Positions 1-36,619 of a stretch of DNA of 47,069 nucleotides are shown piece by piece. Both the position numbers and the translations under genes were made by a program. Below the pieces are notes generated by a model. The model was not told the DNA's origin and made no database searches. It saw nothing but the letters and a program-made list of their open reading frames with translations. Source of the DNA: a virus (taxonomy: Duplodnaviria; Heunggongvirae; Uroviricota; Caudoviricetes); IMG/VR virus record IMGVR_UViG_2778261418_000014, positions 1-47,069 of that record. One strand, 5' to 3'. The number at the start of each line of letters is the position of its first letter. The first letter of the stretch is position 1.

Positions 1-162
1 ATATTCATGATATTTGATTTTTTTAGAGTTAAAGAACGTGTAATTATTTGTTTTCAGATTAAAAAACCTCTATTACTATCACGCACCGGAAAGGCTATGT
101 TTTCGGCGAATGCTTATTACTTAAGATATTTATTTAAATGCAACTGCGACGGGAGTAATCTG

Positions 163-510
163 ATGCAGCAAAGAGATACTTACCTTCATGGGGAACAAAG
201 GCAGTTATTTCTTAGCAAGAAGAATCAGTATCTAGCGATAGGAAAGGTTCCTGAAGATATATTCTGGTTGCTAGTGGAGATGTCAGCCATACGCAGTCAA
301 AGCATCATAAAGGCATTGTATGACTATCTTGTTCTTGGTGATTCGAGAAAAGTTATCTGCGAGCGATACAATGTAAATAATGGATATATAAGTACCAGTT
401 TATCTCGTCTGGAACGTATGAATGAAATGATAAAAGAAATTATACCCCACCATGTAAAATGGTATTTGGGCACCAATAATTACTGTGAATGCTGTGCGCG
501 TGCTATATGA
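163..510 (+). CDS. PapB/FaeB-family adhesin-operon transcriptional regulator
   Basis: Track ORF 7..510. ATG at 163 is preceded by GGGAG (151-155) at 7-nt spacing. The segment SIIKALYDYLVLGDSRKVICERYNVNNGYISTSLSRLERM matches the conserved PapB-family core as I recall it (DYLV.G.SRKEVCEKY.MNNGYFSTTL.RL). Start is uncertain (7 and 97 are alternatives). Confidence 0.6.
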   Translation: MQQRDTYLHGEQRQLFLSKKNQYLAIGKVPEDIFWLLVEMSAIRSQSIIKALYDYLVLGDSRKVICERYNVNNGYISTSLSRLERMNEMIKEIIPHHVKWYLGTNNYCECCARAI

Positions 511-815
511 ATCAGAGAAGGACTGTCTATTCATAGATAAAATAATATCTATATAGGCATTTCTGCATGTTATAAAAATTGCACCTATAGCAATTGTGTT
601 GGTAAACTATCTTTTTCGTTTATAAGGAGGCGTTAATAAAAAAGTCGCAACTAGGTGTTAATTTTTTTCACTATGTATCGGTTATGTGGTCTTGATGATA
701 GTGAAAAGTTATGGATAAAGCTGCCATTAAATAATTATACAGATAACAAATTCTCAAAATATTATCTCATTGAGGCTTCAACTGTAGCTGGTGCAGTAAT
801 TTACTGAAGGTATTT

Positions 816-3800: not shown

Positions 3801-6800
3801 GCAAAACAGACAGGCTCTCTGCTGATGCAAACCTCCGGGACAGGCAGCCGGGGGATCTGGGCCGCAGGGAAAGGGAGCAATGTCCTGGCTGAGGCTGGCA
3901 GTGATTTCCAGATCCTGGGGGCTCAGGCTCAGGGATTATATGTAACTGGTGGTGCGACAGCGACGCTGAAACAGGGGGCATCAGTTAACCTTGTAGGGGA
4001 TGGCGCTGTTGTCGCGGAAGTTGACGGAAATGAATACGCTCTGGATGGCAGTATTACACAAACGAATACTGGCTCGGTTATTACCAATGAGGCAGATATC
4101 TCTTCGCCGCTGAATAATGCCAAGGGCTTTATTACGCGTAATCAGGGACTGTTGATTAACAGCGGCAACATTGATTTCACTGCCGGTACCGATAATATCG
4201 GCGTCTGGGTTGATAACGGCCGCTTTGAAAATACAGGAAGCCGTATTGCGGTCAATGGCGTTGCATTATTTGTTGAAGGCGCACAGTCTCAGATTACCAG
4301 CACAGGAGGGAATATCGTCGCTGTGGATGGTGAGGCTGCCATTAAGCTGGGGGCGGGCGCGTCACTGAACCTGGCAGGGAGTGGCCTGGGTACGATCGAA
4401 GGTCAGAAAAATGCGCATGGCATCCTGCTGGATACAGGGGCTGTGGGGCTGGTTATTGATGGTGCGAAAATCAATGTTAATGCTGCAGGTGCGGTCGGTC
4501 ACGGGATTGAGAACCGCGCAGAAATTGAAGGCATTCAGTTAACCAATACGACTGAAATTAATGTGGCTGATGGCATTGGTGTGCGAACTTCTGCTTCTCT
4601 GGCGAAGACCAACAGCGGCACTATTAATGTAGACGGCAGTGGAATTGCACTGGCGTTCCAGAAAGCTGACGGAAGTGAAACCGATAATAACCTGGATATG
4701 TCTGACTCCGGCGGATTAGTCATTAATCTGAAAGGCACGGGCGGCACGGGTATTTTCGCCAACACTAAAGATGGTGCTGTCGTGAAGAGTGGTGCAAGTG
4801 TCAATGTTACACAGGCCGATGGCGGTTCCGCTCTGGTGGTTAACAATGCGGCCAGTGAAGTGGTTCAGAGCGGTAATCTCATTTCTGCTTCTCTGAATCA
4901 TGCCGTGGTGGATGCATCAAAAGCACTGTCCTTTACCAATAAAGGTCAGATTAAAGCTGCGTCCGCCACCGGGACTGCAATGGCGTTTGATGACGCAGTG
5001 AATACCACCGTACTGAATGACAGCGGTGCTGAAATTCAGGGGGTTGTGGCTCTGAACGGCGGTGATAACACATTCACCAATAAAGGCAGTATTACCGGAA
5101 CCGTCAGTGCAAAAGATGGCAACAACACATTGTTATTTGATGACGGCAGCATACTGACAGGAGAAGTGACTGCAGGAAATGGCAATAACAATGTAACGCT
5201 CAATGGTAAGGCTCATGTTGATAAGATTACTGCCGGTACCGGGAAGAACACCTTCACCATTAAAGGCGAAGGGGCAACCTGGAACCAGCTGGATGGCGGG
5301 CAGGGAGATTCTGATTCCCTGATTTTTGATAACGCCATTCATACGCTGGATTCTGTTGTAAAACTACGGAATTTTGAACATGTCGGGCTGAAGAACAGTT
5401 CGCTTGTCACTCTGAAGGAAGCTCTTGTGCTGACCGATGGGGGGACCGGCCCGGGTTCCGTCGATATTGAATCGGGCAGCGAACTGGCCATTATTCCCGC
5501 AGTTGCAGGCAACTTTACCTTTGATCCATTGTTAACGGGCAAAGGAACGCTGTCTGCTCAGCTTGATGCCGAGACCTCTGCTTTTGAATTCAGCCATAAC
5601 GTCGGGGATCAATTTGCCGGAACTCTGAAGCTGGGTACCAGTAGCTTTGCTCTGGAAGGGCTGAATACGAGCGGGTTAACCCATGCAATGCTGATGTCTG
5701 AAACCGGGAATATCACAACGGTTGGCTCCGGTGTTCAGCAGATTGGCGGTCTTGGGTTCAATGGCGGAACGCTGATTTTTGGTTCCGTTATGCCGGGCGA
5801 TACCATTGCCAGCAACAGTATTGAAACCTCTGCTGCAGGTACGCTGGATATCCGGGGGAAAGGCACAATTCAGGTCACCATGCCAGATGAAGTGATTAAT
5901 GATATTCCGGCTGTTGATACCCGTAAGAATTTGCTGGAGCAGGATGATGCGCAGACCCTGGTCACGCTGGTGAATGCAGCGGGTACCGTCACCGGTACTG
6001 GCGGGCAACTGCAACTGGTGGATGAAAACGGGCAGGCTATTTCTCACAGTCAGACGTTTGATGTCACTCAGGGCGGTGAAGTTGTAGCTCAGGGAAATTA
6101 TGACTATAAGCTGCTGGGAAGCTCCGACGGTATTAAAGGTGACGGACTGTACATAGGCTATGGGCTGAAGTCGCTGGATTTACAGGGAACCGGTGATAAA
6201 GCGCTGGTGCTGACACCGAGAGCGAATGCCCAGGGACTGCAGACAGATCTTGGCGCACAGTTAACGGGGGCAGGGGATCTGGCCATCGAAGCTGCGGGGC
6301 AGGTTGTCACACTGTCTAACGGCGGTAATAACTACACCGGGGATACGCTGGTGCGCAGCGGCACATTACAGATGGCAAATGATAATGTACTTGGCGCAAC
6401 AGGTAATCTGAACGTCGCCAGCAATGCCGTCTTCAGAACAAACGGATACAGCCAGACTGTCGGTGCACTGCAGACAGAAACGGGAGCGCACATTCAGCTT
6501 GATAGCGGTAGTGTACTAACGGTCAGCGGCACGCAGCGTCAGCCGGGGGATGATAATGGTGGCATCATTGAAAACAACGTGCTGTCCGGTGAGGGAACGC
6601 TGGCTGTCACGGGCAGCAATCTGACGGTACATGGCACCAATATCGGGTTTACCGGTAATGCCAGCCTTACCCAGGGGGCGCTGGTTGAAATGAACGGCGC
6701 ACAGGGGCTGGGAAGCCAGGGCTCCATCAGCTTTGAAAGCCTTAATGATCGCCTGGCGATTGATATCGCCGACGGTAGCGGAGTCAGCAGTAACCTGAGT

Positions 6801-8723
6801 AAATCGCTTTCCGGAGAAGGTTCAGTGGGTATACTGAACACCACTGATCTGACGCTTTCCGGGGATAACAGTAATTTCAGCGGTGAATTCCGTGTGCAGA
6901 AAGATGCTGCTCTGCGGGCTTCAGATGAAAAACACCTGGGCACCGGGCTGATTGACAGTGATGGTGTCACCTGGCTTACCGCCAGTGGAAACTGGTTACT
7001 GAAGAATGATATTACTGGCTCCGGCGCTCTGGTGAAACAGGGGGCGGGTAATCTGATCATTAATCATGAGCTGACTTATACCGGTGATACCACGGTTGAA
7101 AATGGCGTTCTGATTGTCGGTGATGATTCAGTCACCCGCGCCGCTGATGCGACGCTATCAGGCTCCGGAAATATTCATGTTCTCAATGGCGGCACACTCA
7201 GTGGGCAGGGTACCGTTGCAGGTCATGTTAATAACCAGGGAACGCTGGCATCACTGAATGCACTTTCAGGCTATGAGAACGCAGAAGTAAGCAATTTTAC
7301 GGTTGGCTCACTGACCAATACCGGCGTCATTCGTCTGGCCGGTGGTAAGACAGGAAATACCCTGACCGTAAATGGCGATTACACCGGTGGCGGTACGTTA
7401 ATTATCAATACCGTGCTGGGGGATGATACCTCTGCCACTGACAAACTGATTGTCACGGGTAACACTTCCGGCGATACCGGCGTGGTGGTGAATAACGTCC
7501 GGGGCCAGGGGGCTCAGACCGCTGACGGCATTGAGATTGTGCATGTCGGTGGTCAGTCTAACGGTAACTTCAGACTGGAGAATCGTGCTGTGGCCGGGGC
7601 ATGGGAATATTTCCTGCATAAAGGTAATGCGGGTGGTACCGACGGTAACTGGTATCTGCGCTCTGAATTGCCGCCGGAGCCGGGGACAAAACCGGAGACA
7701 AAACCGGAGACAAAACCAACACCGGATAAACCTGTGCAGACGGTCTATCGCCCGGAGGCTGGCTCATATATTTCGAACATTGCGGCGGCTAACACGCTGT
7801 TCAACACCAGAATGCACGATCGTGAGGGGGAAACTTACTATACCGACGTGTTTACTGGTGAGAAAAAAGCAACCAGTATGTGGATGCGTCATGTTGGCGG
7901 TCATAATCGCTGGAAGGACAGTAGTTCACAACTGAATACGCAAAGCAACCGCTATGTTGTGCAACTGGGTGGCAGCATTGCACAGTGGACTGACGGTCAG
8001 GAGCGTCTGCAGCTGGGTATTATGGCCGGTTACGGGAATGAGAAGAGCTCCACGACATCCTCGGTTTCGGGATATAAATCTAAAGGCTCGATCAGCGGTT
8101 ACAGTACCGGTTTATACGGAACGTGGCAGCAGAATGACGGCAATGACACCGGGGCTTATGTTGACACCTGGATCCAGTACGGCTGGTTTAATAATACCGT
8201 TAATGGTGAAAAACTGGCGGCGGAGTCCTGGAAATCCCGTGGATTTACCGGTTCAGTGGAAGCAGGTTATACCTTCAAAGCCGGCGAATTTACCGGCAGC
8301 CAGGGAAGCCACTATGACTGGTATATTCAGCCACAGTCCCAGCTTACGTGGATGAATGTAAGAGCCGGCGAACATAAGGAGAAAAACGGCACGAAAGTTC
8401 AGCTTAACGGAGACGGCAATATCCAGAGTCGTCTGGGCGTCAGAACTTACCTGAAAGGTAAGAGTGCGTCTGATGACAATAAGGCGCATCAGTTCGAGCC
8501 TTTTGTGGAGGTTAACTGGATCCATAATACACAGGACTGGAGTGTCAAAATGGATAATACGGTACTCAGTCAGGACGGAGCCACAAATATTGCTGAAGTC
8601 AAAACGGGTGTTCAGGGTAAATTGTCAGACAACCTGAATATCTGGGGCAATGTTGGCGTTCAGGTCGGCGATAAAGGGTACAGTGATGCCCAGGCAATGC
8701 TGGGTATTAAATATACATTTTAA
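816..8723 (+). CDS. Giant type Va autotransporter adhesin (2635 aa)
   Basis: N-terminus MNKIYKVIWNHSTQQWDVVSEL is the extended signal peptide motif typical of autotransporters. The passenger is a long Gly/Thr/Asn-rich beta-helix-like repeat region with PATR-like repeats (GAGDLAIEAAGQVVTLSNGGNNYTGDTLVRSGTLQ; GSGALVKQGAGNLIINHELTYTGDTTVENGVLIV). A pertactin-like autochaperone region and a Pro-rich linker PEPGTKPETKPETKPTPDKP precede a C-terminal beta-barrel-like domain ending KYTF. Confidence 0.85.
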   Translation: MNKIYKVIWNHSTQQWDVVSELTSCRKKCKSTRLGIALSAMVLGGAIAINCNNAMADVILSPDWRPGTNNSGVGAATVSGKTEYITGPNVVQSGGSGLIWMTVEQAILNGYTTGDNLSGLIYVNTGEKTKTITVKDEVTGASQTLQVFDTDSFSQRDAGTGGNENIPGFSGTADFFNATRFVTAENGGTAILNVGSPAIGNFFKNTQLAVADGDGSSVVWNSVNDFYFQPAATMQGGGVTQKIIDSMKYAGTITDWTGKVHHINSLDDLKQYNQYLIKSLEDKTLSYKQYDAEFNKALIVTKHNYNVDMTAGGRIDSTPYKENVGLLAVLHATNKARAILGKTGKLTGVLPAYGNGGGIVATNGGTGVNEGIIDAIGTEMIAYQDSTIVNDGTLYVWDNNDKYALQAEGMVAGSNNSSAINNSVINIRPFKNAFAPEGINTAIVVSNGGMATNNGTINITADASTNDNNGKTRGVNVGAGGSFINSALGNINIGIAEDKTATHSAVGSVAIEVQNGANKVVNEGTILLGTGAQGNYGILAKDAGTVDVVNTGTITIDGHDSDAPALNIGMFANNSTGLKNTGVINVNGLNSAGLQVINGGQIASDGTVNVGGKGISSGFRNYGAWVEGTGSRVDISGEISLTGDGAVGVFAKDGGNLTLSGNGAVVFGGSDQVGFYVYGDGSAIHNTGNSVMDVSTENSTLFRIASGAVYRGGTGASSDLTASGKNSYALVATGRSDTGTASTVTSGGMTINLTGEGATAVLVEGGAQGSIDSSTTINMDNASAIAGIADGNGYDISGNLINPNDKTTLLTAGAQLSSSQDKVTGYIARNGATLENTGNITFTGKNTTGIRVEEGATGTNSGNIIVQDGGVGLLARGSQDSTTINNSGNLVLSGGDNANRTTGVKASGAATTVNMIAGTLELQGQGAIGVEVSEQGTVNLEGTAIPKFAADGSGITDQIAFRIIGDGATINTKVAQGTLLEASGQRSVLFRIEDGAKQTGSLLMQTSGTGSRGIWAAGKGSNVLAEAGSDFQILGAQAQGLYVTGGATATLKQGASVNLVGDGAVVAEVDGNEYALDGSITQTNTGSVITNEADISSPLNNAKGFITRNQGLLINSGNIDFTAGTDNIGVWVDNGRFENTGSRIAVNGVALFVEGAQSQITSTGGNIVAVDGEAAIKLGAGASLNLAGSGLGTIEGQKNAHGILLDTGAVGLVIDGAKINVNAAGAVGHGIENRAEIEGIQLTNTTEINVADGIGVRTSASLAKTNSGTINVDGSGIALAFQKADGSETDNNLDMSDSGGLVINLKGTGGTGIFANTKDGAVVKSGASVNVTQADGGSALVVNNAASEVVQSGNLISASLNHAVVDASKALSFTNKGQIKAASATGTAMAFDDAVNTTVLNDSGAEIQGVVALNGGDNTFTNKGSITGTVSAKDGNNTLLFDDGSILTGEVTAGNGNNNVTLNGKAHVDKITAGTGKNTFTIKGEGATWNQLDGGQGDSDSLIFDNAIHTLDSVVKLRNFEHVGLKNSSLVTLKEALVLTDGGTGPGSVDIESGSELAIIPAVAGNFTFDPLLTGKGTLSAQLDAETSAFEFSHNVGDQFAGTLKLGTSSFALEGLNTSGLTHAMLMSETGNITTVGSGVQQIGGLGFNGGTLIFGSVMPGDTIASNSIETSAAGTLDIRGKGTIQVTMPDEVINDIPAVDTRKNLLEQDDAQTLVTLVNAAGTVTGTGGQLQLVDENGQAISHSQTFDVTQGGEVVAQGNYDYKLLGSSDGIKGDGLYIGYGLKSLDLQGTGDKALVLTPRANAQGLQTDLGAQLTGAGDLAIEAAGQVVTLSNGGNNYTGDTLVRSGTLQMANDNVLGATGNLNVASNAVFRTNGYSQTVGALQTETGAHIQLDSGSVLTVSGTQRQPGDDNGGIIENNVLSGEGTLAVTGSNLTVHGTNIGFTGNASLTQGALVEMNGAQGLGSQGSISFESLNDRLAIDIADGSGVSSNLSKSLSGEGSVGILNTTDLTLSGDNSNFSGEFRVQKDAALRASDEKHLGTGLIDSDGVTWLTASGNWLLKNDITGSGALVKQGAGNLIINHELTYTGDTTVENGVLIVGDDSVTRAADATLSGSGNIHVLNGGTLSGQGTVAGHVNNQGTLASLNALSGYENAEVSNFTVGSLTNTGVIRLAGGKTGNTLTVNGDYTGGGTLIINTVLGDDTSATDKLIVTGNTSGDTGVVVNNVRGQGAQTADGIEIVHVGGQSNGNFRLENRAVAGAWEYFLHKGNAGGTDGNWYLRSELPPEPGTKPETKPETKPTPDKPVQTVYRPEAGSYISNIAAANTLFNTRMHDREGETYYTDVFTGEKKATSMWMRHVGGHNRWKDSSSQLNTQSNRYVVQLGGSIAQWTDGQERLQLGIMAGYGNEKSSTTSSVSGYKSKGSISGYSTGLYGTWQQNDGNDTGAYVDTWIQYGWFNNTVNGEKLAAESWKSRGFTGSVEAGYTFKAGEFTGSQGSHYDWYIQPQSQLTWMNVRAGEHKEKNGTKVQLNGDGNIQSRLGVRTYLKGKSASDDNKAHQFEPFVEVNWIHNTQDWSVKMDNTVLSQDGATNIAEVKTGVQGKLSDNLNIWGNVGVQVGDKGYSDAQAMLGIKYTF
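7685..7718 (+). repeat. Tandem 12-bp repeat (gacaaaaccgga, about 2.8 copies) encoding the PETKPETKP linker of the autotransporter
   Basis: Direct reading: gacaaaaccgga gacaaaaccgga gacaaaacca. Confidence 0.6.
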
Positions 8724-8730
8724 TCACATA

Positions 8731-8755
8731 GTGGCAGGAGGATCCCTCCTGCCAC
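8731..8755 (+). other. Perfect 11-bp stem hairpin between the autotransporter and Skp-like genes
   Basis: gtggcaggagg-atc-cctcctgccac. No U-tract follows, so it is more likely a stabiliser or attenuator than an efficient intrinsic terminator. Confidence 0.4.
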
Positions 8756-8770
8756 ATCCGGGTAGTCATA

Positions 8771-9313
8771 ATGAGTTCTGTAATGAAATTTTCTGTTGCT
8801 AATGCAGTATTGTTGCTGTTGCTGATTGGATTTACTGGTGTTATTTATATGAATAAATCAAAAGAAATTGCAGTTGTTAATATTGATGCTGTTTATAATC
8901 AGTCTTCTGCCGGAGAACTGGCCAGAACGCATCTGAGTGAAGTTAAGATTATTCTTGAAAAGGGATACAAGGATGCGCTAAAAGCATTCGCAGATAACGA
9001 AAATAAAGATGCACTGCTTCTTGATGCCAGACAAAAACTGGAGAGGCAATATGTTATCGAGGAGCACAATGCAAAAATGGTGTTATCCCGTGTAATAGAT
9101 AATGCCATAAATAACTGGAGAAAAGATAACACAGGAAATATTGCTGTGTTGTCTTCAGGTGTTGTGCTTGCACATAACGATTCAGCTGATATCACAAAAG
9201 AAATTATGGCTCTGGTTGAAAAAGAACATCTGGTTTTTAATCAGTTACCTAAAGTGGAAGTGAAAGTTCAGGAGGAGGTGACAAGTAAAGAGGGAACAGA
9301 AGAAGATAAATAA
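8771..9313 (+). CDS. Skp/OmpH-like periplasmic chaperone
   Basis: 180-aa ORF with a hydrophobic N-terminus. KEIAVVNIDAVYNQSSAG and VLAHNDSADITKEIMALV resemble the Skp motifs (KIAIVN...; VAYNSSDVKDITADVLKQV). It lies immediately downstream of the autotransporter. Confidence 0.55.
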   Translation: MSSVMKFSVANAVLLLLLIGFTGVIYMNKSKEIAVVNIDAVYNQSSAGELARTHLSEVKIILEKGYKDALKAFADNENKDALLLDARQKLERQYVIEEHNAKMVLSRVIDNAINNWRKDNTGNIAVLSSGVVLAHNDSADITKEIMALVEKEHLVFNQLPKVEVKVQEEVTSKEGTEEDK

Positions 9314-9351
9314 CCATTAGTTCCCGATAACGTTTGTTGAGGCGATTCACA

Positions 9352-9390
9352 AGCCGGTATCTGTTATCACTCAGATACCGGCTTATTGTT
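9352..9390 (+). terminator. Rho-independent terminator-like hairpin after the Skp-like gene
   Basis: Inverted repeat agccggtatctg / cagataccggct with an 8-nt loop, followed by tattgtt. Confidence 0.45.
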
Positions 9391-9547
9391 GGGGCCGGGT
9401 ATAATCCGGCAACAGCGTCAAATATCAGGAGGAGGAATGCTGGTTAGGTAACTTTATCATCTTCAGTCTCAAATTCTGATAAATGACAGGAATGTGCGGC
9501 ATGCATTACTTAACGTATACCATCTATAGCTAGATGAAAATTTATTT

Positions 9548-9952
9548 TTGATGTGGGGATTGATATATGGAAATGAAAAAAACATTTGCTATATAAAGAG
9601 TGAAATAAAAGAACATGATATTACTGTTCACTTATGGGTATTTGCATCGCTGACAAAAACTGAGTGTGATGTTCTTGAGTTAATAATGAAAGGGTATAGT
9701 TCTACAAAAATATCACACCTCCGGTCTCGTAGTAATAAAACTGTATCGTTACAAAAGAGACATATATACAAAAAACTTGGTGTCCGAAATGATGTTACAT
9801 TCTGGATTGATATTTTTTTGTCACCAGCGATAAGAACAGTTTTTTACCGAAAAGGCGAGGTTATTAACATAGAAAATGAAATTTTCGAAATGTCCGGTGA
9901 TTCATTTAAGCTTTTGAATAAGTCACTGAACACATTACTGGACAAAAAGTGA
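9548..9952 (+). CDS. LuxR-family HTH protein, possibly a truncated regulator
   Basis: LTKTECDVLELIMKGYSSTKISHLRSRSNKTVSLQKRHIYKKLGV is a typical LuxR-type HTH. It sits N-terminally rather than C-terminally, in very AT-rich DNA, so it may be a remnant. Confidence 0.4.
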   Translation: MMWGLIYGNEKNICYIKSEIKEHDITVHLWVFASLTKTECDVLELIMKGYSSTKISHLRSRSNKTVSLQKRHIYKKLGVRNDVTFWIDIFLSPAIRTVFYRKGEVINIENEIFEMSGDSFKLLNKSLNTLLDKK

Positions 9953-10271: not shown

Positions 10272-10298
10272 TGTGTACACATAACGAGTACACGAGGT
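10272..10298. promoter_or_regulatory. phd-doc promoter/operator palindromes
   Basis: TGTGTACACA palindrome plus the neighbouring GAGTACACGAG half-site repeat lie immediately upstream of phd. The phd/doc operon is autoregulated through palindromic operators. Confidence 0.5.
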
Positions 10299-10302
10299 GT
10301 TT

Positions 10303-10524
10303 ATGCAATCCATTAACTTCCGTACCGCGCGCGGCAACCTTTCTGAAGTGCTCAACAATGTTGAAGCCGGGGAAGAGGTTGAAATCACCCGCAGAGGCCG
10401 TGAGCCAGCAGTAATTGTCAGCAAGGCTACTTTCGAAGCCTACAAAAAAGCGGCGCTGGATGCTGAATTTGCATCCCTGTTTGACACCCTGGACTCCACC
10501 AACAAGGAACTGGTTAACCGATAA
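10303..10524 (+). CDS. phd: Phd antitoxin (prevent host death)
   Basis: [73 protein letters not shown] matches P1 Phd as I recall it. GAGGTG SD; TAATG overlap with doc. Confidence 0.93.
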
Positions 10525-10904
10525 TGAGGCATATATCACCGGAAGAACTTATTGCGCTTCATGATGCGAATATAAGCCGCTACGGCGGCCTGCCTGGCAT
10601 GTCAGATCCGGGCAGGGCAGAGGCCATTATCGGGAGAGTTCAGGCCAGAGTTGCCTACGAAGAGATCACCGACCTTTTCGAAGTCTCCGCCACCTACCTG
10701 GTGGCTACAGCGAGAGGGCATATATTCAATGATGCCAATAAGCGTACCGCGCTAAACAGCGCGCTGCTATTTCTACGCCGTAACGGGGTGCAGGTATTTG
10801 ATTCACCTGAACTGGCAGACCTTACTGTAGGCGCTGCGACTGGCGAGATATCTGTATCTTCTGTCGCCGACACGTTACGTAGATTGTATGGTTCTGCGGA
10901 GTAG
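10524..10904 (+). CDS. doc: Doc toxin (Fic-fold kinase)
   Basis: 126 aa with the Fic motif [11 protein letters not shown]; translationally coupled to phd. Confidence 0.93.
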
Positions 10905-20812: not shown

Positions 20813-20817
20813 GCCAT

Positions 20818-21378: not shown

Positions 21379-21406
21379 TAAATATATTATTTTTAATCTT
21401 AAATGA

Positions 21407-21431: not shown

Positions 21432-21566
21432 CAGAATCATCACACGCCCGGTACGGATGGATCCCTTTTCAAATATTCCATGGACGGCACAGTCTGAGTA
21501 CCGGGCGCTACCTTCAGTTGTATTGCTAAGCCGCCGCTGGTGGCTTTTCTTTTTTGTAGGGGCGCT

Positions 21567-22208
21567 ATGGATAAGAAAATATGCGTTGTTTCAATGAGCG
21601 TCGGCAAACCGGCGTCAATGACTGCTGCATGGATCAACAATGAGCTGATAATGGCTGAGCGGACCAGCTACCCTGAACGCCGCCGCGATATGGAACTCCA
21701 GCTGCTGCGCGAATTGCGAGAAAAAGAGGAAAAGGGTTTTATCGTGCTGGTGGAAGAGGAAAACAGCTTTATTACCGGTCGAGTTGGCCAGCGTGTAAGG
21801 TTGCGTGATCCCTTCATGAACGGCAGACCGGTACTGATTGAAGCAATGCAGATTTACAAGGAATTGGAACGCCAGAAAGCGATCAAGTTACCGCGCAAGG
21901 AATCCGGCAAATACATCCTTCACCAAAGCATCTTCGATTCCGAACACGATAAAAAAGGCGATGAATTTTTCAACATCAACTGGAGCGAAATAACGACAGA
22001 ACATGTTCTGACGTTACTATGTTGCTTTGCGACGGAATACAACAACGTTGCCAGCGCCGACTACATCAGGGCAATGGCTGGAGAAGTTGAGGCCCATCAG
22101 GAACCATCATTACTAAGTCCCCTGATTAACATAATTCGCGGAACTCAAACACTAACGCAAAAACAAGTGCCGCAAGGAGAATTAACAGGTAAACAGAACT
22201 ATTTATAA
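21567..22208 (+). CDS. mat: Mat-like maturation control protein
   Basis: ORF at the P1 mat position. ATG at 21567 with GTAGGGG SD (track ORF starts at 21540). Confidence 0.55.
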   Translation: MDKKICVVSMSVGKPASMTAAWINNELIMAERTSYPERRRDMELQLLRELREKEEKGFIVLVEEENSFITGRVGQRVRLRDPFMNGRPVLIEAMQIYKELERQKAIKLPRKESGKYILHQSIFDSEHDKKGDEFFNINWSEITTEHVLTLLCCFATEYNNVASADYIRAMAGEVEAHQEPSLLSPLINIIRGTQTLTQKQVPQGELTGKQNYL

Positions 22209-22228
22209 TAGTTACGTTAGGTAACATT

Positions 22229-22255
22229 ATGGGTATGTTTCATTTTCATACCCAT
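22229..22255 (+). terminator. Hairpin after mat
   Basis: atgggtatg-tttcatttt-catacccat followed by tgatttct. Confidence 0.4.
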
Positions 22256-22283
22256 TGATTTCTAGCTTGATTTGTTATTATAT
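22255..22283 (+). promoter_or_regulatory. Sigma70-like promoter for the toxSAS-like gene
   Basis: TTGATT (22255-22260), 17-bp spacer, TTATAT (22278-22283). Confidence 0.4.
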
Positions 22284-22320
22284 GTAACAACACATTAATC
22301 ATTTGAACTGGATGTTAGTA

Positions 22321-23442
22321 ATGGGCAGTGAAGTATATCAAAGCCAAAAATGCGAACTTAAATATTCGAAATCTCAAATAGAAAAAGCAGCCAGAAAAAT
22401 TAGACATGGTTGTGAGGGCGCAGAGCGAGAAGAAGCAATTAAAATGATTCAAAATTTCCGCGAGCTTCATTTATATCCATTGATGCTAATGAAAAATCAT
22501 CTTGATAGGGCTGCAAAAAAAGTTGATAAAGAGAATAAGATTATTGTTGCAAGACGCCTAAAAAGACTTAGCACAATAATTGATAAACTGGAGCGTCCAA
22601 GTCTTGACGGCGGCGCAACAAATAATGCAATAGCCCTTACTAGAATGCAGGATATTGGCGGATGTAGAGCTATAGTTAGAAACATCGAACAACTAAAGAA
22701 ACTAAAAGACCGACTAGTTAAAAGTCGCTCCAAGCATAAAATCTTAAAGGAATATGACTATTTAACTCCAAAGCCAAGCGGATATAGTGGCATTCACCTT
22801 GCATATAGTTGTTTTGATGAAGAAAACGGTAACAATCCGTGGAGTAAAACTAAAATCGAAGTACAACTAAGAACAGAACTCCAACATGCTTGGGCAACAA
22901 GTCTGGAGATAATAGATACACTTGAAAATATTAAGCTGAAAACTTCTAATGAAGGTCACCCTGAGTGGAGAAGATTTTTTTATCTTTCTGGATGCCTAGT
23001 TGCTCATGATGAAGGTGCCTGTATTCTTGATGATGAAACCATCAAAAATTATCAAACAGAGCTTAAAACATTGGAGGAGGCTTTATCTGTTCGCTCAAAA
23101 TTAAGTACATATACATTTGCAATGAAGCTGACATCAGATGCAAACCTAAAGAAAAGCCTGCCCAAAAACCATAATGGATTCTTTTTGGTGAGGATGAGAA
23201 ACGCCATAACAAAAAATGGCAAGGATACTGGAAAGTTTCTTGTTTCTGTGAAACCTTTTAGGAAAAAAGAATCGGAACAAGCCCTCCAGGAACTTAATAA
23301 GGATGATGCGGATCCTGAAGTATTAATTGCGGTGCTGCTTGCCACTAACAACATTAAATCTCTTAAAAAGGCTTATCCTAACTATTTTGGGTCAACAAAT
23401 CAGTTCGGGAGATTCCTTAGCAGACACATTGATACTGTGTAA
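22321..23442 (+). CDS. RelA/SpoT-family small alarmone synthetase-like toxin with C-terminal extension (CapRel-type fused toxin-antitoxin candidate)
   Basis: 373 codons from ATG 22321 (track ORF from TTG 22303). Synthetase-fold motifs are MQDIGGCRAIV, PSGYSGIHLAY and EVQLRTELQHAWATSLE, followed by a roughly 170-aa Lys-rich C-terminal domain. The gene is AT-rich relative to its flanks and sits where P1 carries res/mod. Confidence 0.7.
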   Translation: MGSEVYQSQKCELKYSKSQIEKAARKIRHGCEGAEREEAIKMIQNFRELHLYPLMLMKNHLDRAAKKVDKENKIIVARRLKRLSTIIDKLERPSLDGGATNNAIALTRMQDIGGCRAIVRNIEQLKKLKDRLVKSRSKHKILKEYDYLTPKPSGYSGIHLAYSCFDEENGNNPWSKTKIEVQLRTELQHAWATSLEIIDTLENIKLKTSNEGHPEWRRFFYLSGCLVAHDEGACILDDETIKNYQTELKTLEEALSVRSKLSTYTFAMKLTSDANLKKSLPKNHNGFFLVRMRNAITKNGKDTGKFLVSVKPFRKKESEQALQELNKDDADPEVLIAVLLATNNIKSLKKAYPNYFGSTNQFGRFLSRHIDTV

Positions 23443-23446
23443 ATTC

Positions 23447-23471
23447 CTATGCCTGGCTTAGCCAGGCATAG
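23447..23471. terminator. Bidirectional terminator hairpin between the convergent toxSAS-like gene and lxc
   Basis: ctatgcctggc-tta-gccaggcatag. Confidence 0.5.
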
Positions 23472-23479
23472 CCAAAGAT

Positions 23480-23728
23480 TTAATCAGCATTCAGGAGCAA
23501 TGCGTTATCTATGATGATCTGCTCCCATTCTTCGAATGCCCGGTCGCGGACGCCCTGGGGAACGCTGTTAGTTTTGAAATCGACGACCGTACGCCATTTC
23601 CCGTCCGGACGGTACATGCGCAGAGCTTTACTTCCCCCTTCCCTGCGCACCTCAACGTTATGCTTATCAGCAAACTCTTGTAATGCTCGTAGCGTCCCAT
23701 GCTTTACTGTGTAGTATCGCTTTTTCAA
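23480..23728 (-). CDS. lxc: Lxc/Bof-like C1 co-regulator
   Basis: 82-aa ORF, 4-bp overlap with the upstream gene. Size and position match P1 lxc (bof). Confidence 0.5.
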   Translation of the reverse strand: MKKRYYTVKHGTLRALQEFADKHNVEVRREGGSKALRMYRPDGKWRTVVDFKTNSVPQGVRDRAFEEWEQIIIDNALLLNAD

Positions 23729-24165: not shown

Positions 24166-24198
24166 ATTATGCGACGCCCGGCGAACCGGGCGCTCCTG

Positions 24199-27100
24199 TT
24201 ATGCGTATTGTTGGATGACGGCCAGAACGTCCGCCACGTTGTGTTTTGTCTCGATAATCCACCAGTTACCCGGGAAATCGCTGTTCTTCGCCTTCGCTGG
24301 CAGCCAGCGAGCGCCGAATTTCGCCTTGATTGCGTCTTTCGCACGGAAAAGAACGCCTTTCATGCCTGAGGCTTCCTGAAGCCCAAATACCTCGCCAGCG
24401 GCGAATTTTGGTGCGTACATCATCTTCAGGTCGGCGGTGGATACGCGATAATTCAGACCAAGAGACTGAGCTATGCTGGTGGCATCACCCTGTATTGATG
24501 ATAACTCTTCTTGTTTCTCGTTTCTGGCGGCAATCTCTTCCTCCGTGATGTTGCCAAGGGCCAGGTTTATCCGATCAGCGTCGGCCTGTTTCTCTTCATC
24601 GGTGCGCCCGGCAAGAACCGTGTTAATTCTCTGCAATATCTCCACATGATTCTTGCGCATGCTGAGCAATTCCGGCGTAACCTCGTTAAGATCCACCAGC
24701 CCAAGGATGGCAAGGTCGGAAAACATTGATACCAGGTTGTAGGTCATGCGATAGCTGAGTTGACCATAGGCTGATGGCAACTTCACCGCATCCATTTGAT
24801 AGGCATCCATAAATTTAGAGCCGTCGTTTACGACATCCGCTATTGCAGGTGTGATTTTCCCTGTGGTGGCGGCCTCCCTGATTGCTGTTACCCACGATTG
24901 AGTCAGCGCGGCGACTGCATGATTCAGATTGGCTTCCCGTTCTGCTGCGATGCGCGCGCTTGCTGCGTCCATTGCCTGCTTGATCTCGGCTTTATTGCTG
25001 TAAATGCCAATGGTGCCAAACTGTGCTGTGGTGATCTCATAATCTGACGCCCGGAACTCATTGGTACCGAAAATGGCATTGGTGACTTCAAGTTCAGAAT
25101 CCCCGTTACGAGTAGCCCCCTGGCTTGTTTTCTCCGGCATTCTGGCGATCGCATCCGCTATTTTCTCCTGAAGTGCTTCAGGGGATAGCGTATCTCCGTA
25201 TGACGCGATTACATCGCCATAATTGGAGCCAAACAGTTCAACCAGGAATGCTTCTGCCGAACGGATCTGGCGGTTATTCCCTTCCGACATCATACCAAGC
25301 ACCCATTTTGCAATTGACGACTTCAGCGCGCCGTCACGGCGATCCGGGTAAACCGCATGCTTCAGTGGGTCCGTATAGGTACCAACAAAATCAATGCTAT
25401 AGCCTGACTCTGTAGTCTGAACGCCGTATGAGTCAGTGATTTTGATCATGCCGCGCTGCTGGAAACGGTAGAAATCGTCACAGGAAACGATGTCGTTAAT
25501 CCCGGCGATGGAGACGCCACCACTGATTTTCTGCATAACAGCATCTTCATCGGGAGTTACATCAACCTGTTTATCCAGCGTCTTCACATCCCAGTTACCC
25601 GATTTGGTGCCTTTGAAGGTAAAGATGATCTCCACGTCTGCGCGCTGGCTGTCGAAGTCCAGCGACTTAATGCGAACGATATCACCGGCACAATCATAGT
25701 ATTGGCCTACACGCCATGAGCGATCGCCGATAACAAGGAACTCATTCGCATGGTTAACCAGATCAGGATCAACATCCAGAATGCCTTTATTTATTGCATC
25801 CTCCACCAGCGGGCGCAGGCGTTTGATATCCGTCGCGGCCTTCTGAGTACGGTTCAATAATTTCTCATAGCGGGAGATGGCCTGAGAGATATTAGCCTTG
25901 CGCTGAATGGCGCTTTTCAACGACGCGCGATACTGTGCTAACAACATACGGTCTGTGTGATGGACGCTACCCCAGCGGGCTTTCCAGTCTGCGTTATCAG
26001 CTGCTTTGGCCATTACCGCCTGTTTGAATTTGGCGACGTCGGCGGTGGTCTTTTCAAGTTCCGCTTTGCTTCGCTCCAATTCAGCGGTAAGTACCTCCAC
26101 ATCCTCACCAGCTGCGTGCTGCGCCTTGATGTAGTTCTGAAGGTCGATAGTAGCCTGTTCTTTCTGGCGAGCGCGTTTCGCAGCTTTCGCCTTATCCATT
26201 TGAACCTGCATCATTGCCAGACGTTCGCCGTCATCCTTCGCGGTATACATCTGCATTTCGATCATATCGTTGGCGTCGGCGTTCTCCATTTCTGACTTAT
26301 CTGAACGGAGGATATCGGAGATCCAGCCTGCTTTACGCTTCAGCGTCTTCAGTCGGTATTCATCGAAAGACCCCTTGCCGCAGTAGTAGTGAACGCGAAC
26401 GCTTGCACGGTTGGAGCCAACTCGGGCACCGCGACCGTTTCGTTGCGCAATACTGGCTGGAGTCCATGGCAACGTCAGATGATGGATGTCAGTCGTTCCT
26501 CGATGCAGGTTGATACCCACCTCTGCCTTTTTGTTGCAGATGATGATCGGAGTCCGGCCCTCCTGGAAGTCGGCTGCAATCTTTTCCAGACCGCCCAACG
26601 ACATTTCATTTTGCTGCGCGATATAGGCGTCATACAGAGCCATTTGCTCGTTGTATTTCGCTATCTGTGCATCTGTTGGTTCATCCGGTAACTCTTTCGG
26701 CGGTTTAACCGCTTTCAGTTTCTTACCGGTTTTACCTGCCTCGGCAACCGTCTGAGCATTCAGTATCCCCACCTTTGAAGGTTCAAGGTTAAGAGCATTG
26801 CAGATAATGCGCTTGAGCTTCTGGTGCTGCGTTTTTTCATCGGTGAAGATGATTTGCTTACCTTCCGGGAAAAACTCCTTCAGCGTGGCAATCAGCTTCG
26901 CGTATTTGGGCGTAACGGGGTGAGTTACGGTCTGTTCGTCAATGCCAAACCTGGCCAGGCGCTTATTCACTTCCTGCTCGAACGCTTCCGGAACCTGCAA
27001 CTGAATAAACTCGCCCTTATCTATCAGGGAGTATTGCGATTGCTGCGTGATTGAATCATCACTGTCGTCGTCTTCGCTGGTGGCTTGTTTAGGCAAACTG

Positions 27101-30100
27101 TCCGCCAGCTGCTGCACCGCATCGGCGTACTCCGGCAGGAAACGATAGGTGATCCGGCGATAGTACAGGTCCATGTCAGTACATACGCGGTCCATATCCC
27201 TGATTATTGAGAAGATCGGACGGGCTTTCTCGTGCTCAATCACGCCGTCTTCATTGACCGAGGTCGTTACGCCATTGTTGGCTTTGGCCGCCGCTTCCGC
27301 CTGCTGACGCAATTCTTCATACGCCGCCAGTTGTTCTTCAGTAAGTGGTGCATCCTGCTGGTGTTCGTCCAGCTCCGGGATCTCCACGGTATCCTTAACG
27401 TCTTCCGCCGTTTTAAGCGTTACCCAGCGATGGAATATACCGCGCAGCGCATCAAGGTTTTCAAAGCCCACCAGCGCCATTTTTTCTTCAACTTCACCGC
27501 TAATTTTCTGTACCGTTTCCAGCCTGGTCTTGCCGAAGAATTTAACGAAGTCATCAGGACCGTAGATCCCCATGTTCTGCCAGTATTCCTTCGGCAGAAC
27601 ATGAGAAAGCATGTTGTATGCATCGATCGGGGTGTTAACGACTGGCGTTGCAGTCAGGAGAACCGGCCCGCGCCCACCATTCTTTTTCATCAGGTACGCG
27701 TTTTTAATTGCCATATCTCGCGCCGATTGCGCTACCGCGCTGGTGGGCAGATAGGCTAGCTGTGACGCTTCGCGACCATTTTTATAGCTATTGCGGTAGT
27801 TGTGGCCTTCGTCGGCGATCACACTATCGAAGCCCATATCCTCAAAGTACGGATACTTCTCTGCTTTTTCGGTGCCGGTATCTGAATACTCCGACAATAC
27901 CCGGCGACGCGCGGCCTCTTTGCGGTGGGAGTCGGAGTCCATTGCGCTGGCTACGCGTCCGGCGGCAACGAAGTCATAAAGCATATCCTGTGCATGCTCA
28001 TCTACGGTGTCATCACGTAGCGGAATGCGGGCGTATTGTTCTTTGGTAAACACGACTGCACGGTAATTTGAGTGCGGGATCGCGTTCATCCGCGCCGTGA
28101 TAGTGGCTTCATCTGCCAGCTTAAGAGCATCGCGCATAACTGGAGTGCCATCAGTACCAAGAACAGGTTTACCGTTCTCATCGAGCACCTGCACCTGGCG
28201 AATCTGATCGCCATCCATCAGCACATCAAGACCGACGAACAGGTAGTTACTGAATGCCTCTTCACTCAGGAATTCTTTTGCTTCGTAATACCAGTTTTCC
28301 AGCACTGATTTAGGCACTACATACGCAGTACGGGTGGAGCGACCGTTCTCATAGTTGAACGCCTCAAGCGCCAGCGCGGTCGTGGTTTTACCCAGCCCGG
28401 TGCCGAAGCCCAGGATGCCGCGCCCATCTTCGGACAGTCGGCGCACCTCGCTATTCTGGTAATCAAATGGCTGGCGCTTACCGCTTAATCCCTTCAACCC
28501 AAGCGGATCGCCAGAGTGTTCATACGGGATATTGCTATTGAACACATCGTTGTATTTAGCAACCAGCTCATCGTAGCGATCGTGCGTCTTGATCCACTTA
28601 TTGAACTGGTCCTCAAGCAGTGCCATCTGCTCGCGGTAGCCGTTCGCCGTCGCGCTATCTTTGCCACCGATACGCGCACCATTGAGATACTTTTCCAGCT
28701 GTGCCGGGAACCCGGTCGCGTTTTCACCTGATTTACGGTCCCACTCGTAGCGGATCTCGCCTGTTTCTTTATCCTTACGCTGGACGACACCGTATCGGTG
28801 CCCGACGAACAGGCCATCACCACCGTGATAGGTGTCAGAAACCATTTCGTCGCCTTCCAGCTGCACTGACTGCACATAGCGCAGATCCGGATAGCCGTTT
28901 TCCTGCAAAAACTCCAGAATGACGGAACGGTCGAACCAACGGCTATTGAGCTTAAAGCGGATATTCTCTGCTGGCGTCTTGATGCGCTTCTCTTCGATCG
29001 CTGCCAGCTGATTAAGGACGTTGTTCTTTACTGGACCGTCGGGGAGCGTGGCGAGGAATTCCTGTTTTGGAGCCACTATCTCGTTAATGTCGCCGCTGGT
29101 GGCGCGGGCGAACGGAACAATCCCGCCATACGGTGAAACCGCAATGCCAGGGGTGCTGGCCAATAAATTAAGCAACTCGTCATCACTGGCTGGCAGTTCG
29201 CCGGTAAACGCAAGGCGGAAATCATCGAGCTGGATTGGATCGCGAGTGAGATCACTGTAGAGATAACGCAGGGTGTCCTGATAGCTGGTGGAGTCATAAC
29301 TGGCGCTGGAATCATGCGTAACCAGTTTTCCTGTCAGCTCGTCAGAAATAGTGCCATCCAGCTTAATTGCACCACGGAAAGCAAACCAGGCGCGCGCACC
29401 GCTCCCCGATAATTTCGCTATCGGACCGCGACCGGGGTTACCAAAACGGTCAATCTCTGCCTGCAAACGGGATACCAGAGAAAGGCGCTGCTGTTCGATT
29501 TGTTCAGCACTATGCCCGGCGGCCTTCATGTCCTGATATTCAATTAACATCCGGCCAATCATCGCCCCGCGATACAAGCGTTCACGGTATTTTTCAGGCT
29601 GGCTGTTAATCCAGTCCACCAGCTGCACCATATCGTCGCTGATTGATGTGGTGTACTTATCGCGGACATTTGCCATCTGGGTAAATGTCATGCCGAGACG
29701 GCCTTCTGTTGTAGTCAGGTTACGCTGAAGAGCCTCCCAGCTATCCGCGCCATAACTGGCAGCATCGATCTTAAGTTCCTTCCCTGCATCAGCTTCAATC
29801 CAGCGACCACCAGCATATTTTTGCCATACGCCATTAATCAGGCGCATTTCCCCTTCACCAACAACGTCTGCGGTCGGTGACGGTTCAGCCATATCGAGCA
29901 AAGACCAGTCGATACGGCTTTCGAAACGATGAATCAGCTTCGCTTTAAGAGCCTGGTTATCAATCTGACCGTCGGCACGAACCTCAATACGCCCCTGGAA
30001 GCCCTTTTCCTGGGTGCCATGAACAAACCGGCGGCCGTCCTTTTCAAACCACTTGCCAGAAATAAACGTTGGCCAAAGCACATTTGCCGATTCGAGAGTG

Positions 30101-30966
30101 CTTTCATCCACCAGGGGGATTTTCTCAGCCATCTCTGCCGGATGTTTGCGCATCAGCACCACATCAACAACTGTACTGGTCCCGTTTGCGTCAAAAGTAC
30201 CGGTAGGCAAGCGGTGGGCACCAAGAAATTCAGCTTTCCGTGATAGGCGCAGGCGTAACCGTTTCATGTTTGAACCTGAAACAATGGACGGCGGCACAAT
30301 CACACACATGAATCCGCCAGGTTTTATCTTGTCCAGCATGCGGAGCATGAAGTAAGACCCCATGTCCGTTTCTTCTGCGTAAGGCTTATCGATGTTGCGT
30401 GTGTTATCACGACCGCCGAACGGAACGTTACCCACAACATGGTCGAATGAATCGTTAGGCGTGTTTATAGCCAGCTGTTCGAACGGGGAAATCTGTACGC
30501 TGTCTTCCGGGTGTAACAACTGGTTTATACGACCGGAAACACTGCTGATCTCAGTCGCGGTCATCACCGTACCAACCGGTTTTGTCTCATTAAAAACGCC
30601 GGTTCCCGCCGATGGTTCCAGAGTGTTACCTACGTCCGCGCCGTAGAGCTTCATGATCTCCCAGACACCTTCAGCGATAGGCTTTGGTGTGTAATATTCG
30701 GAGACGGACCCGCCAATGCCGCCTTCACCAGTGTACCCGGCCAGGATCTGGCGCTGTTCATCTGTCAGTGTCGCGCCGTCCACCAGCGAATTAAGCAAAT
30801 CTATCGCCTTCTGATTCGCCTCCCGGCGCAGTCGGTCATAGCTTTTGCCTTCCACCTTTTCCACGCCGTATTTAATCGGCGCTCGGTGAGATGTTATTGC
30901 CCTAATGTATTTCAATATTTCGCTGACACTTGAACAGCGAAACACACCCATAGATAGCTTGTTCAT
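24199..30966 (-). CDS. darB: DarB antirestriction protein (N6-adenine methyltransferase plus DExH helicase)
   Basis: 2255 aa. Methyltransferase motifs LEPSAGTGVF and GNVPFGG in the N-terminal part; helicase Walker A GFGTGLGKTT and DEGH box further on. Confidence 0.85.
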   Translation of the reverse strand: MNKLSMGVFRCSSVSEILKYIRAITSHRAPIKYGVEKVEGKSYDRLRREANQKAIDLLNSLVDGATLTDEQRQILAGYTGEGGIGGSVSEYYTPKPIAEGVWEIMKLYGADVGNTLEPSAGTGVFNETKPVGTVMTATEISSVSGRINQLLHPEDSVQISPFEQLAINTPNDSFDHVVGNVPFGGRDNTRNIDKPYAEETDMGSYFMLRMLDKIKPGGFMCVIVPPSIVSGSNMKRLRLRLSRKAEFLGAHRLPTGTFDANGTSTVVDVVLMRKHPAEMAEKIPLVDESTLESANVLWPTFISGKWFEKDGRRFVHGTQEKGFQGRIEVRADGQIDNQALKAKLIHRFESRIDWSLLDMAEPSPTADVVGEGEMRLINGVWQKYAGGRWIEADAGKELKIDAASYGADSWEALQRNLTTTEGRLGMTFTQMANVRDKYTTSISDDMVQLVDWINSQPEKYRERLYRGAMIGRMLIEYQDMKAAGHSAEQIEQQRLSLVSRLQAEIDRFGNPGRGPIAKLSGSGARAWFAFRGAIKLDGTISDELTGKLVTHDSSASYDSTSYQDTLRYLYSDLTRDPIQLDDFRLAFTGELPASDDELLNLLASTPGIAVSPYGGIVPFARATSGDINEIVAPKQEFLATLPDGPVKNNVLNQLAAIEEKRIKTPAENIRFKLNSRWFDRSVILEFLQENGYPDLRYVQSVQLEGDEMVSDTYHGGDGLFVGHRYGVVQRKDKETGEIRYEWDRKSGENATGFPAQLEKYLNGARIGGKDSATANGYREQMALLEDQFNKWIKTHDRYDELVAKYNDVFNSNIPYEHSGDPLGLKGLSGKRQPFDYQNSEVRRLSEDGRGILGFGTGLGKTTTALALEAFNYENGRSTRTAYVVPKSVLENWYYEAKEFLSEEAFSNYLFVGLDVLMDGDQIRQVQVLDENGKPVLGTDGTPVMRDALKLADEATITARMNAIPHSNYRAVVFTKEQYARIPLRDDTVDEHAQDMLYDFVAAGRVASAMDSDSHRKEAARRRVLSEYSDTGTEKAEKYPYFEDMGFDSVIADEGHNYRNSYKNGREASQLAYLPTSAVAQSARDMAIKNAYLMKKNGGRGPVLLTATPVVNTPIDAYNMLSHVLPKEYWQNMGIYGPDDFVKFFGKTRLETVQKISGEVEEKMALVGFENLDALRGIFHRWVTLKTAEDVKDTVEIPELDEHQQDAPLTEEQLAAYEELRQQAEAAAKANNGVTTSVNEDGVIEHEKARPIFSIIRDMDRVCTDMDLYYRRITYRFLPEYADAVQQLADSLPKQATSEDDDSDDSITQQSQYSLIDKGEFIQLQVPEAFEQEVNKRLARFGIDEQTVTHPVTPKYAKLIATLKEFFPEGKQIIFTDEKTQHQKLKRIICNALNLEPSKVGILNAQTVAEAGKTGKKLKAVKPPKELPDEPTDAQIAKYNEQMALYDAYIAQQNEMSLGGLEKIAADFQEGRTPIIICNKKAEVGINLHRGTTDIHHLTLPWTPASIAQRNGRGARVGSNRASVRVHYYCGKGSFDEYRLKTLKRKAGWISDILRSDKSEMENADANDMIEMQMYTAKDDGERLAMMQVQMDKAKAAKRARQKEQATIDLQNYIKAQHAAGEDVEVLTAELERSKAELEKTTADVAKFKQAVMAKAADNADWKARWGSVHHTDRMLLAQYRASLKSAIQRKANISQAISRYEKLLNRTQKAATDIKRLRPLVEDAINKGILDVDPDLVNHANEFLVIGDRSWRVGQYYDCAGDIVRIKSLDFDSQRADVEIIFTFKGTKSGNWDVKTLDKQVDVTPDEDAVMQKISGGVSIAGINDIVSCDDFYRFQQRGMIKITDSYGVQTTESGYSIDFVGTYTDPLKHAVYPDRRDGALKSSIAKWVLGMMSEGNNRQIRSAEAFLVELFGSNYGDVIASYGDTLSPEALQEKIADAIARMPEKTSQGATRNGDSELEVTNAIFGTNEFRASDYEITTAQFGTIGIYSNKAEIKQAMDAASARIAAEREANLNHAVAALTQSWVTAIREAATTGKITPAIADVVNDGSKFMDAYQMDAVKLPSAYGQLSYRMTYNLVSMFSDLAILGLVDLNEVTPELLSMRKNHVEILQRINTVLAGRTDEEKQADADRINLALGNITEEEIAARNEKQEELSSIQGDATSIAQSLGLNYRVSTADLKMMYAPKFAAGEVFGLQEASGMKGVLFRAKDAIKAKFGARWLPAKAKNSDFPGNWWIIETKHNVADVLAVIQQYA

Positions 30967-35503: not shown

Positions 35504-36619
35504 TTAGAATTGGTAGGTCATACCAACAGCAACGATGTTGTCGGTTGCAACCTCAGATGTTTTGGTAAATTCACTTTCATCAATCAGGTTGATCTTGTAG
35601 TCAACGAAAGCGGACATATTTTTGTTAAAGTAATAAGTCGCGCCCACGTCGATGTATTCAACCAGATCCTGGTTACCGAACGCACCAATATTTTCACCGC
35701 GAGAGTGTAGGTAAGCGATGGACGGACGCAGGCCGAAATCAAACTGGTATTGAGCAACGGCTTCAAAGTTTTTCGCCTTGTTCGCGATATGGTCATCACC
35801 GAAGACTGTCATATTCTGAGTTTCAGAATAAGTTGTAGCCAGGTAAATGTTGTTTGCATCATATTTCAGGCCCGTAGCCCATACTTCAGCAGTTTTACCA
35901 GAGGCATTCAGATTCAGAGGGGCTTTAGCATAGGATACCTGTCCATCAGTACGGTCAGATTTTGCATAAGTTGCGCCAATGCCAAATCCTTCATAATCAT
36001 AAGTAGCTGACAGACCGAAGCCATCACCATTAGATTCAACTACGTCGCGGCCTTTCCAGTTGTTCACTTTTGCAGCACTATCATTTTTACCCTGATACTG
36101 CAAAGCAAAGTTCAGACCATCAACCAAGCCGAAGAAATCATTGTTACGATAGGTCGCGACGCCAGTAGCACGCTGGGTCATAAATACATCAGTCTGAGTC
36201 CAGGTATCTCCACCAAACTCCGGCAGCACGTCAGTCCAAGCGCCAACATCATACGCTACACCGTAGTTGCGACCATAGTCGAGCGAACCATAATCGCCAA
36301 AGCGAAGCCCTGCAAACGCAAGACGAGTTTTATCTTTATCAGAACCTTCAGTTTCAGTACGGTTACCTTTAAATTCGTACTCCCACTGACCAAAACCGGT
36401 TAACTGGTCATTAATCTGAGTTTCACCTTTGAAACCCATACGAGCATAAGTTTTATCCCCGTCATCACTAGCTGAAGAAGAGAAGTAATGCTCTGCATTA
36501 ACTTTGCCGTACAGATCCAGTTTGTTACCGTCTTTGTTATAGATTTCTGCCGCTTGTGCAGACATTGCCATCAGGACTGATGCTGCAACCGCAGAAAGTG
36601 CCACTGTGATTTTTTTCAT
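35504..36619 (-). CDS. General porin of the OmpC/NmpC/Lc family
   Basis: Signal peptide [23 protein letters not shown], then [23 protein letters not shown], and the C-terminal VAVGMTYQF. Confidence 0.9.

Follow-up and report, generated by a model that had tools for sequence, protein, structure and literature searches.

CapRel^SJ46, from the Salmonella temperate phage SJ46, is the founding fused toxin-antitoxin toxSAS defence protein, and the PDB entries 7ZTB and 9ERV are its crystal structures (Zhang et al., Nature 2022 and 2024). The N-terminal fragment (toxSYNTH) is toxic and is rescued in trans by a C-terminal fragment comprising residues 273-373; the full-length protein is non-toxic in the absence of a phage trigger (PMC9712102). 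Protection depends on a low multiplicity of infection, which indicates abortive infection, and is abolished by the substitution Y155A; Y155 is the G-loop tyrosine, and R79 and R116 coordinate ATP (PMC9712102). The structure solved at 2.3 Å is an open state. A closed state is supported by AlphaFold and by mutagenesis (Y352A, Y355A and interface residues); in this state the pseudo-zinc-finger domain packs against the toxSYNTH sheet, and a YXXY motif placed between R79 and R116 obstructs the adenine site. Escape mutants of phage SECΦ27 carry changes in the major capsid protein Gp57 (L114P and I115F), and Gp57 binds directly to the C-terminal domain of CapRel^SJ46, as determined by ITC and HDX-MS. 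Activated CapRel labels tRNA from [γ-32P]ATP, and translation is blocked but transcription is not. The 66-aa Gp54 of Bas11, unrelated to Gp57, is a second trigger, and the surface to which it binds overlaps that for Gp57 (Zhang et al., Nature 2024); the 2024 paper describes a CapRel^SJ46-Gp54^Bas11 co-crystal structure and also cites 9ERV. Constructs described as carrying the 'native promoter' confer strong defence (Zhang et al., Nature 2022 and 2024), and the protein has been followed by immunoblot after SECPhi27 infection (Fig. 3a legend). All these functional results were obtained with the cloned gene in E. coli K-12, rather than with a lysogen of the phage-plasmid considered here.

Several other systems are related to CapRel^SJ46 to different degrees. 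CapRel^Ebc (Enterobacter chengduensis) and CapRel^Kp (Klebsiella pneumoniae), as judged from their published descriptions, have the same fusion of toxSYNTH to a pseudo-zinc-finger domain (pseudo-ZFD) and the same abortive-infection logic as the gene described below. CapRel^Ebc, which is 70% identical overall and 47% identical in the C-terminal region, defends against T7 (PMC9712102), and is reported to sense T7 Gp0.4 together with FtsZ (2026 paper). The systems PhRel/ATphRel (mycobacteriophage Phrann) and FaRel2/ATfaRel2 possess a homologous toxSAS toxin but are bicistronic, whereas the present gene is one fused ORF; FaRel2 likewise pyrophosphorylates tRNA 3'-CCA ends, and the Phrann system likewise excludes superinfecting phages. 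More distant are the housekeeping small alarmone synthetases RelQ, RelP and YjbM (PDB 5DEC, 6EWZ and 2BE3), which have the RelA/SpoT nucleotidyltransferase fold and the G-loop in common with CapRel, but with weak similarity (E = 1e-7 or weaker), no antitoxin domain, and GDP/GTP rather than tRNA as the substrate.

The window analysed here, i.e. the whole stretch of 47,069 nucleotides, is a P1-like phage-plasmid of the Punavirus type, a sister of SJ46. One of its genes is almost certainly an allele of capRel^SJ46, which encodes an identical protein, differs by one synonymous change, and constitutes a one-gene cargo cassette in the slot between mat and lxc. The features of this locus are as follows.

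22182..22209, + strand: best sigma70-like promoter candidate, TTAACA-16 nt-TATAAT, matching 11 of 12 consensus positions
22194..23473: AT-rich cargo cassette between mat and lxc, 1,280 bp, about 37% G+C
22229..22255, + strand: upstream hairpin of capRel, within its 5' leader or promoter region; 9-bp perfect stem, 9-nt loop
22321..23442, + strand: capRel coding sequence, ATG at 22321 and TAA at 23440-23442, 373 codons plus TAA; the product is CapRel^SJ46
22555..22899, + strand: RelA/SpoT nucleotidyltransferase core of the toxSYNTH toxin domain, aa 79-193, Pfam PF04607
23137..23439, + strand: C-terminal antitoxin/sensor region, pseudo-zinc-finger domain plus anchors, aa 273-373
23447..23471: perfect 12-bp palindrome, CTATGCCTGGCT t AGCCAGGCATAG, lying 5 nt past the capRel stop codon and, on the other side, 8 nt short of the end of the convergent lxc

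An AT-rich ORF of about 373 codons had been described at 22321..23442 in the initial annotation, and this description is correct: the G+C content of the ORF is 37.0% vs 48.0% for the window, with a dip that spans about 22000 to 23400. The ORF listing also contains a 379-aa alternative that starts at an in-frame TTG (22303) and adds six residues; the 373-aa start is preferred because this length equals that of the crystallised protein. In a PDB sequence search, 373/373 residues match 7ZTB_A and 372/372 match 9ERV_A, both labelled 'RelA/SpoT family protein', and the runners-up are small alarmone synthetases of the RelQ/RelP/YjbM type (E = 1.8e-7 or weaker). The earlier proposal of a CapRel-type fused toxSAS toxin-antitoxin protein is thus borne out, in that the protein is CapRel^SJ46 itself. 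The gene is already known as the type member of the fused CapRel family, its structure and mechanism are published, and the identification meets no contrary evidence. At the DNA level, positions 21500-24300 match phage SJ46 (NC_031129 / KU760857) over the full length with one base different, at position 22356, the third base of codon 12 (GAA/GAG, both Glu). Apart from this synonymous base, the two elements agree in the cassette and in the sequence on either side of it, from mat to darB, and the protein is the same in both. The SJ46 counterpart is locus BI168_gp058, annotated as 'RelA/SpoT family protein; GTP pyrophosphokinase'.

The ORF is bracketed by the two hairpins listed above, as originally reported; both lie within the cassette and are real in the sense of being stabler than shuffled sequence (z = -3.1 and -4.7). 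The upstream one folds at -11.7 kcal/mol (z = -3.07), and the palindrome at 23447-23471 folds at -19.5 kcal/mol (z = -4.7) on one strand and at -20.2 kcal/mol (z = -4.1) on the other. Neither was called in a terminator scan, because T-runs are absent. The downstream palindrome is probably a bidirectional terminator-like hairpin, and the two flanking hairpins may act in transcription control or termination. The initial annotation also assigned to capRel a sigma70-like promoter of its own, and this claim stands in part. A strong site does exist at 22182-22209, where it shares bases with the mat stop codon and spans the left cassette junction. On the other hand, promoter-like sites in the region number 3, against a shuffle expectation of 5.0 +/- 2.3. 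As this count lies below the shuffle mean, the scan alone cannot support an 'own promoter', and the claim draws its support from the 'native promoter' constructs of the published work.

These features bear on the possibility that capRel, though intact, is silent or has no role in this element; for example, repression in the lysogen or expression restricted to a late stage would leave the element without native protection. The chance-level count of promoter-like sites, and a best site that straddles both the cassette junction and the mat stop codon, would suit such a scenario. It is nevertheless very improbable: the window and SJ46 do not differ at any of the 821 bp before the ATG (21500-22320), and native-promoter constructs were active in the published work; moreover, 22 plasmids from three genera retain the ORF with at least 99% identity, although a copy that appears to be disrupted by IS1 is also known. 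We infer that the gene would be expressed and protective in a lysogen of the present phage-plasmid.

The domain content of the product agrees with the structural work. Similarity of the N-terminal part to RelA/SpoT synthetases, which had been set as a check on the first reading, was found both in the RelQ/RelP/YjbM structures and in Pfam, where RelA_SpoT (PF04607) matches aa 79-193 with E = 3e-13 and 50.5 bits vs a cut-off of 27; by sequence comparison, this similarity is far above chance. The three RelA/SpoT motifs quoted previously are all present, namely DIGGCRAIV (aa 111-119), SGYSGIHLAY (aa 153-162) and EVQLRTELQHAWATSLE (aa 180-196). The PADLOC candidate-defence model PDC-S33 spans aa 11-370 (7e-87), and phrog_4773 likewise matches the product over its full length (1e-144). 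R79, R116 and the G-loop Y155 (codon 22783-22785) are found at their published positions, the YXXY neutralisation motif is YPNY (aa 352-355, nt 23374-23385), and L280, L307, Y352 and Y355 are all present, so that every residue named in the CapRel^SJ46 studies is retained. All the sequence-readable defining features of a fused CapRel toxSAS were found: a toxSYNTH domain, the catalytic residues, a C-terminal domain with YXXY, and a single ORF. Two details of the earlier description have to be changed. The C-terminus had been called Lys-rich, but Lys is equally frequent in both parts (11.5% in aa 1-200 vs 11.0% in aa 201-373), and a boundary dividing the protein into about 200 and 170 residues does not hold, since the published antitoxin construct 273-373 puts the break at about residue 272/273.

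A protein with this catalytic core could also be read as an ordinary small alarmone synthetase (RelQ/RelP/YjbM-like), which would make (p)ppGpp for the stringent response of the phage or the host. The core does align weakly with RelQ/RelP/YjbM structures (E = 1.8e-7 to 2e-4) and with the NCBIfam model GTPPhKinYjbM (E = 5e-10), and database records name the product 'GTP pyrophosphokinase' or '(p)ppGpp synthetase'. That model (NF053588, the GTP diphosphokinase YjbM equivalog) aligns to aa 73-193 alone and scores 39.4 bits vs a cut-off of 320, so the capRel product is no equivalog; in addition, it has an extra pseudo-ZFD antitoxin domain of about 100 residues, and the identical protein pyrophosphorylated tRNA in published assays, in which translation was inhibited and transcription was not. 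The probability of this reading is negligible, and it is excluded on the NCBIfam score (39 bits vs 320) and on tRNA being the published substrate.

In the window, cre, c8, ref, mat and capRel follow one another and are succeeded by lxc, ulx and darB on the opposite strand, the immediate neighbours of capRel being mat (+, ends at 22208) and the convergent lxc (23480..23728, -). Homology to phage RCS47 ends at 22193 and restarts at 23474, and homology to P1 ends at 22163 and restarts at 23475. No separate antitoxin ORF lies beside capRel in the ORF listing, as had been stated, and the other ORFs of the cassette are short ones that overlap capRel. The view that cargo is swapped between mat and lxc also holds, since mat and lxc/ulx/darB are conserved on its two sides and the contents of the slot differ in RCS47, P1, JL22 and Ro157c2YLVW. 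Mat and lxc are adjacent in RCS47, with an empty slot of only 49 bp (2196..2244 of the compared locus), hence capRel is dispensable. In JL22 the slot encodes a PIN-domain protein that PADLOC PDC-S34 matches in part (952..1902 of the compared locus), and vB_EcoM-Ro157c2YLVW carries an EAL-domain gene and an AraC-type regulator (1056..2630 of the compared locus). For P1, the initial annotation had named res/mod and IS1 as the occupants; the EcoPI res/mod genes do fill the slot of the P1 reference record, but no IS1 is annotated in that record, and an IS5 lies within mod instead. The mat-lxc slot is therefore a true variable cargo site, often with defence genes and sometimes not. The type III EcoPI res/mod resembles capRel in being a prophage-carried defence in this same slot, but its genes and mechanism are unrelated and it takes up about 6.3 kb including IS5 (reference record), vs 1.28 kb here.

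A divergent capRel allele is present in the same slot of phage vB_EcoM-673R5 (ON470615.2, 2310..3409 of the compared locus). Its DNA is about 83% identical up to window position 23033, and the C-terminal sensor region is too diverged for the BLAST settings used. In the record, this allele has two frame changes and is annotated as two CDS, which reflects either a pseudogene or a sequencing error.

The phage-plasmid in the window is distinct from SJ46. Directly upstream of mat, the window carries ref and no Tn1721, which occupies that place in SJ46; darB is one intact ORF of 2,255 aa (24199..30966) in the window and two CDS in the SJ46 record; and an island of about 10 kb at the left of the window is missing from SJ46. 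Over window positions 17000-31000, the closest plasmid records are those of E. coli AP026465 and CP128965, with 99.5% identity. The left island (7..9952) is also missing from P1 and adjoins humD and phd/doc. Its ORFs, together with the adjoining addiction module, are as follows.

7..510: PapB-family regulator, island ORF
816..8723: 2,635-aa type V autotransporter with an ESPR signal, PATR repeat and autochaperone domain, island ORF (adhesin island)
8771..9313: weak OmpH-like ORF, island ORF
9548..9952: LuxR/GerE regulator, island ORF
10297..10904, + strand: phd/doc addiction module of the P1 type (PhdYeFM antitoxin 3e-13, Fic/DOC 3e-9)

Phage GER2 has a region with 93% identity to the island, annotated there as 'long tail fiber proximal subunit', a label that is probably a misannotation. 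Elsewhere in the window, a full-length gene for an OmpC/OmpF-type porin (35504..36619, -; Pfam Porin_1 E = 3e-148) adjoins an AT-rich island with 35-39% G+C around 36000-37500. This porin gene looks like further non-phage cargo, and it could alter the lysogen surface or the phage receptors.

With phd/doc, the element already has a classical toxin-antitoxin (TA) system for plasmid maintenance, and the notion that capRel is instead a plasmid-addiction (post-segregational killing) module that stabilises the phage-plasmid, which might be suggested by the presence of a toxin-antitoxin gene in a low-copy plasmid prophage and by the use of TA addiction in P1-type elements, this one included (10297..10904), has a vanishingly small probability and was dropped, since toxin and antitoxin form one polypeptide with no separately degradable antitoxin to which the usual addiction logic could apply, full-length CapRel is non-toxic absent a phage trigger in the published work, phd/doc is already in the element, and the slot of RCS47 is empty.

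What remains is an anti-phage defence gene of the CapRel^SJ46 type, whose action is outlined below as published for the identical protein. Gene identity, the domains and key residues, the cassette boundaries and the distribution were obtained in the present analysis, and toxicity, triggers, tRNA pyrophosphorylation and the defence phenotype are derived from the literature. The experiments proposed with the first reading, i.e. fragment toxicity, domain docking, a phage panel with escape mutants, and tRNA pyrophosphorylation, have all been published for CapRel^SJ46. In an uninfected cell, the C-terminal pseudo-zinc-finger antitoxin domain is folded back on the N-terminal toxSYNTH domain with its RelA/SpoT fold, and the YXXY motif (Y352-Y355) inserts between R79 and R116, so that the ATP (adenine) site is blocked and the closed enzyme has no activity. 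Upon infection, binding of a phage protein to the C-terminal domain keeps the enzyme open; two such proteins are known, the HK97-fold major capsid protein of SECPhi27-like phages and, unrelated to it, the 66-aa Gp54 of Bas11. The open enzyme then moves pyrophosphate from ATP to tRNA, translation stops, and the infected cell releases no phage (abortive infection).

A P1-like phage-plasmid that carries CapRel must assemble its own HK97-fold capsids on induction without tripping its own sensor. It might be proposed that the element holds a particular arrangement to avert self-triggering, and that the terminal hairpins aid cargo swapping at the mat-lxc slot, but this combination is improbable. Candidate routes of self-avoidance possibly include a capsid that does not trigger the sensor, an anti-CapRel factor, and repression of capRel in the lytic cycle, the last possibly through the leader hairpin at 22229-22255 or through read-through from a late mat promoter.

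Two crystal structures and two phage triggers are on record for CapRel^SJ46, the reference protein for fused CapRel defence systems, and no new explanation is required for the gene in the window; for the initial annotation, three short motifs and the gene context sufficed for a correct family call. P1-like phage-plasmids from E. coli, Salmonella and Klebsiella carry the identical gene, within a 1.28-kb cassette of defined extent in the variable mat-lxc slot. At an identity of at least 99%, capRel is found in 22 PLSDB plasmids (15 Escherichia, 4 Salmonella and 3 Klebsiella) and in 14 of 5,426 complete E. coli genomes, where it is plasmid-borne every time. This distribution agrees with the report that E. 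coli prophages also encode CapRel^SJ46 at 100% identity (PMC9712102). Nevertheless, the labels in NC_031129, in AP026465 and in RefSeq plasmids are 'GTP pyrophosphokinase', '(p)ppGpp synthetase' or 'RelA/SpoT domain-containing protein', and these are at odds with the published activity of a defence protein that pyrophosphorylates tRNA. An accurate annotation, and a correction for the public records, would be 'CapRel fused toxSAS anti-phage defence protein'. In plasmid NZ_JCATIJ010000003.1 of E. coli MEW (82056..83963), capRel is matched in two pieces over 1,908 bp with an IS1B transposase beneath, and this appears to be an IS1-disrupted copy.
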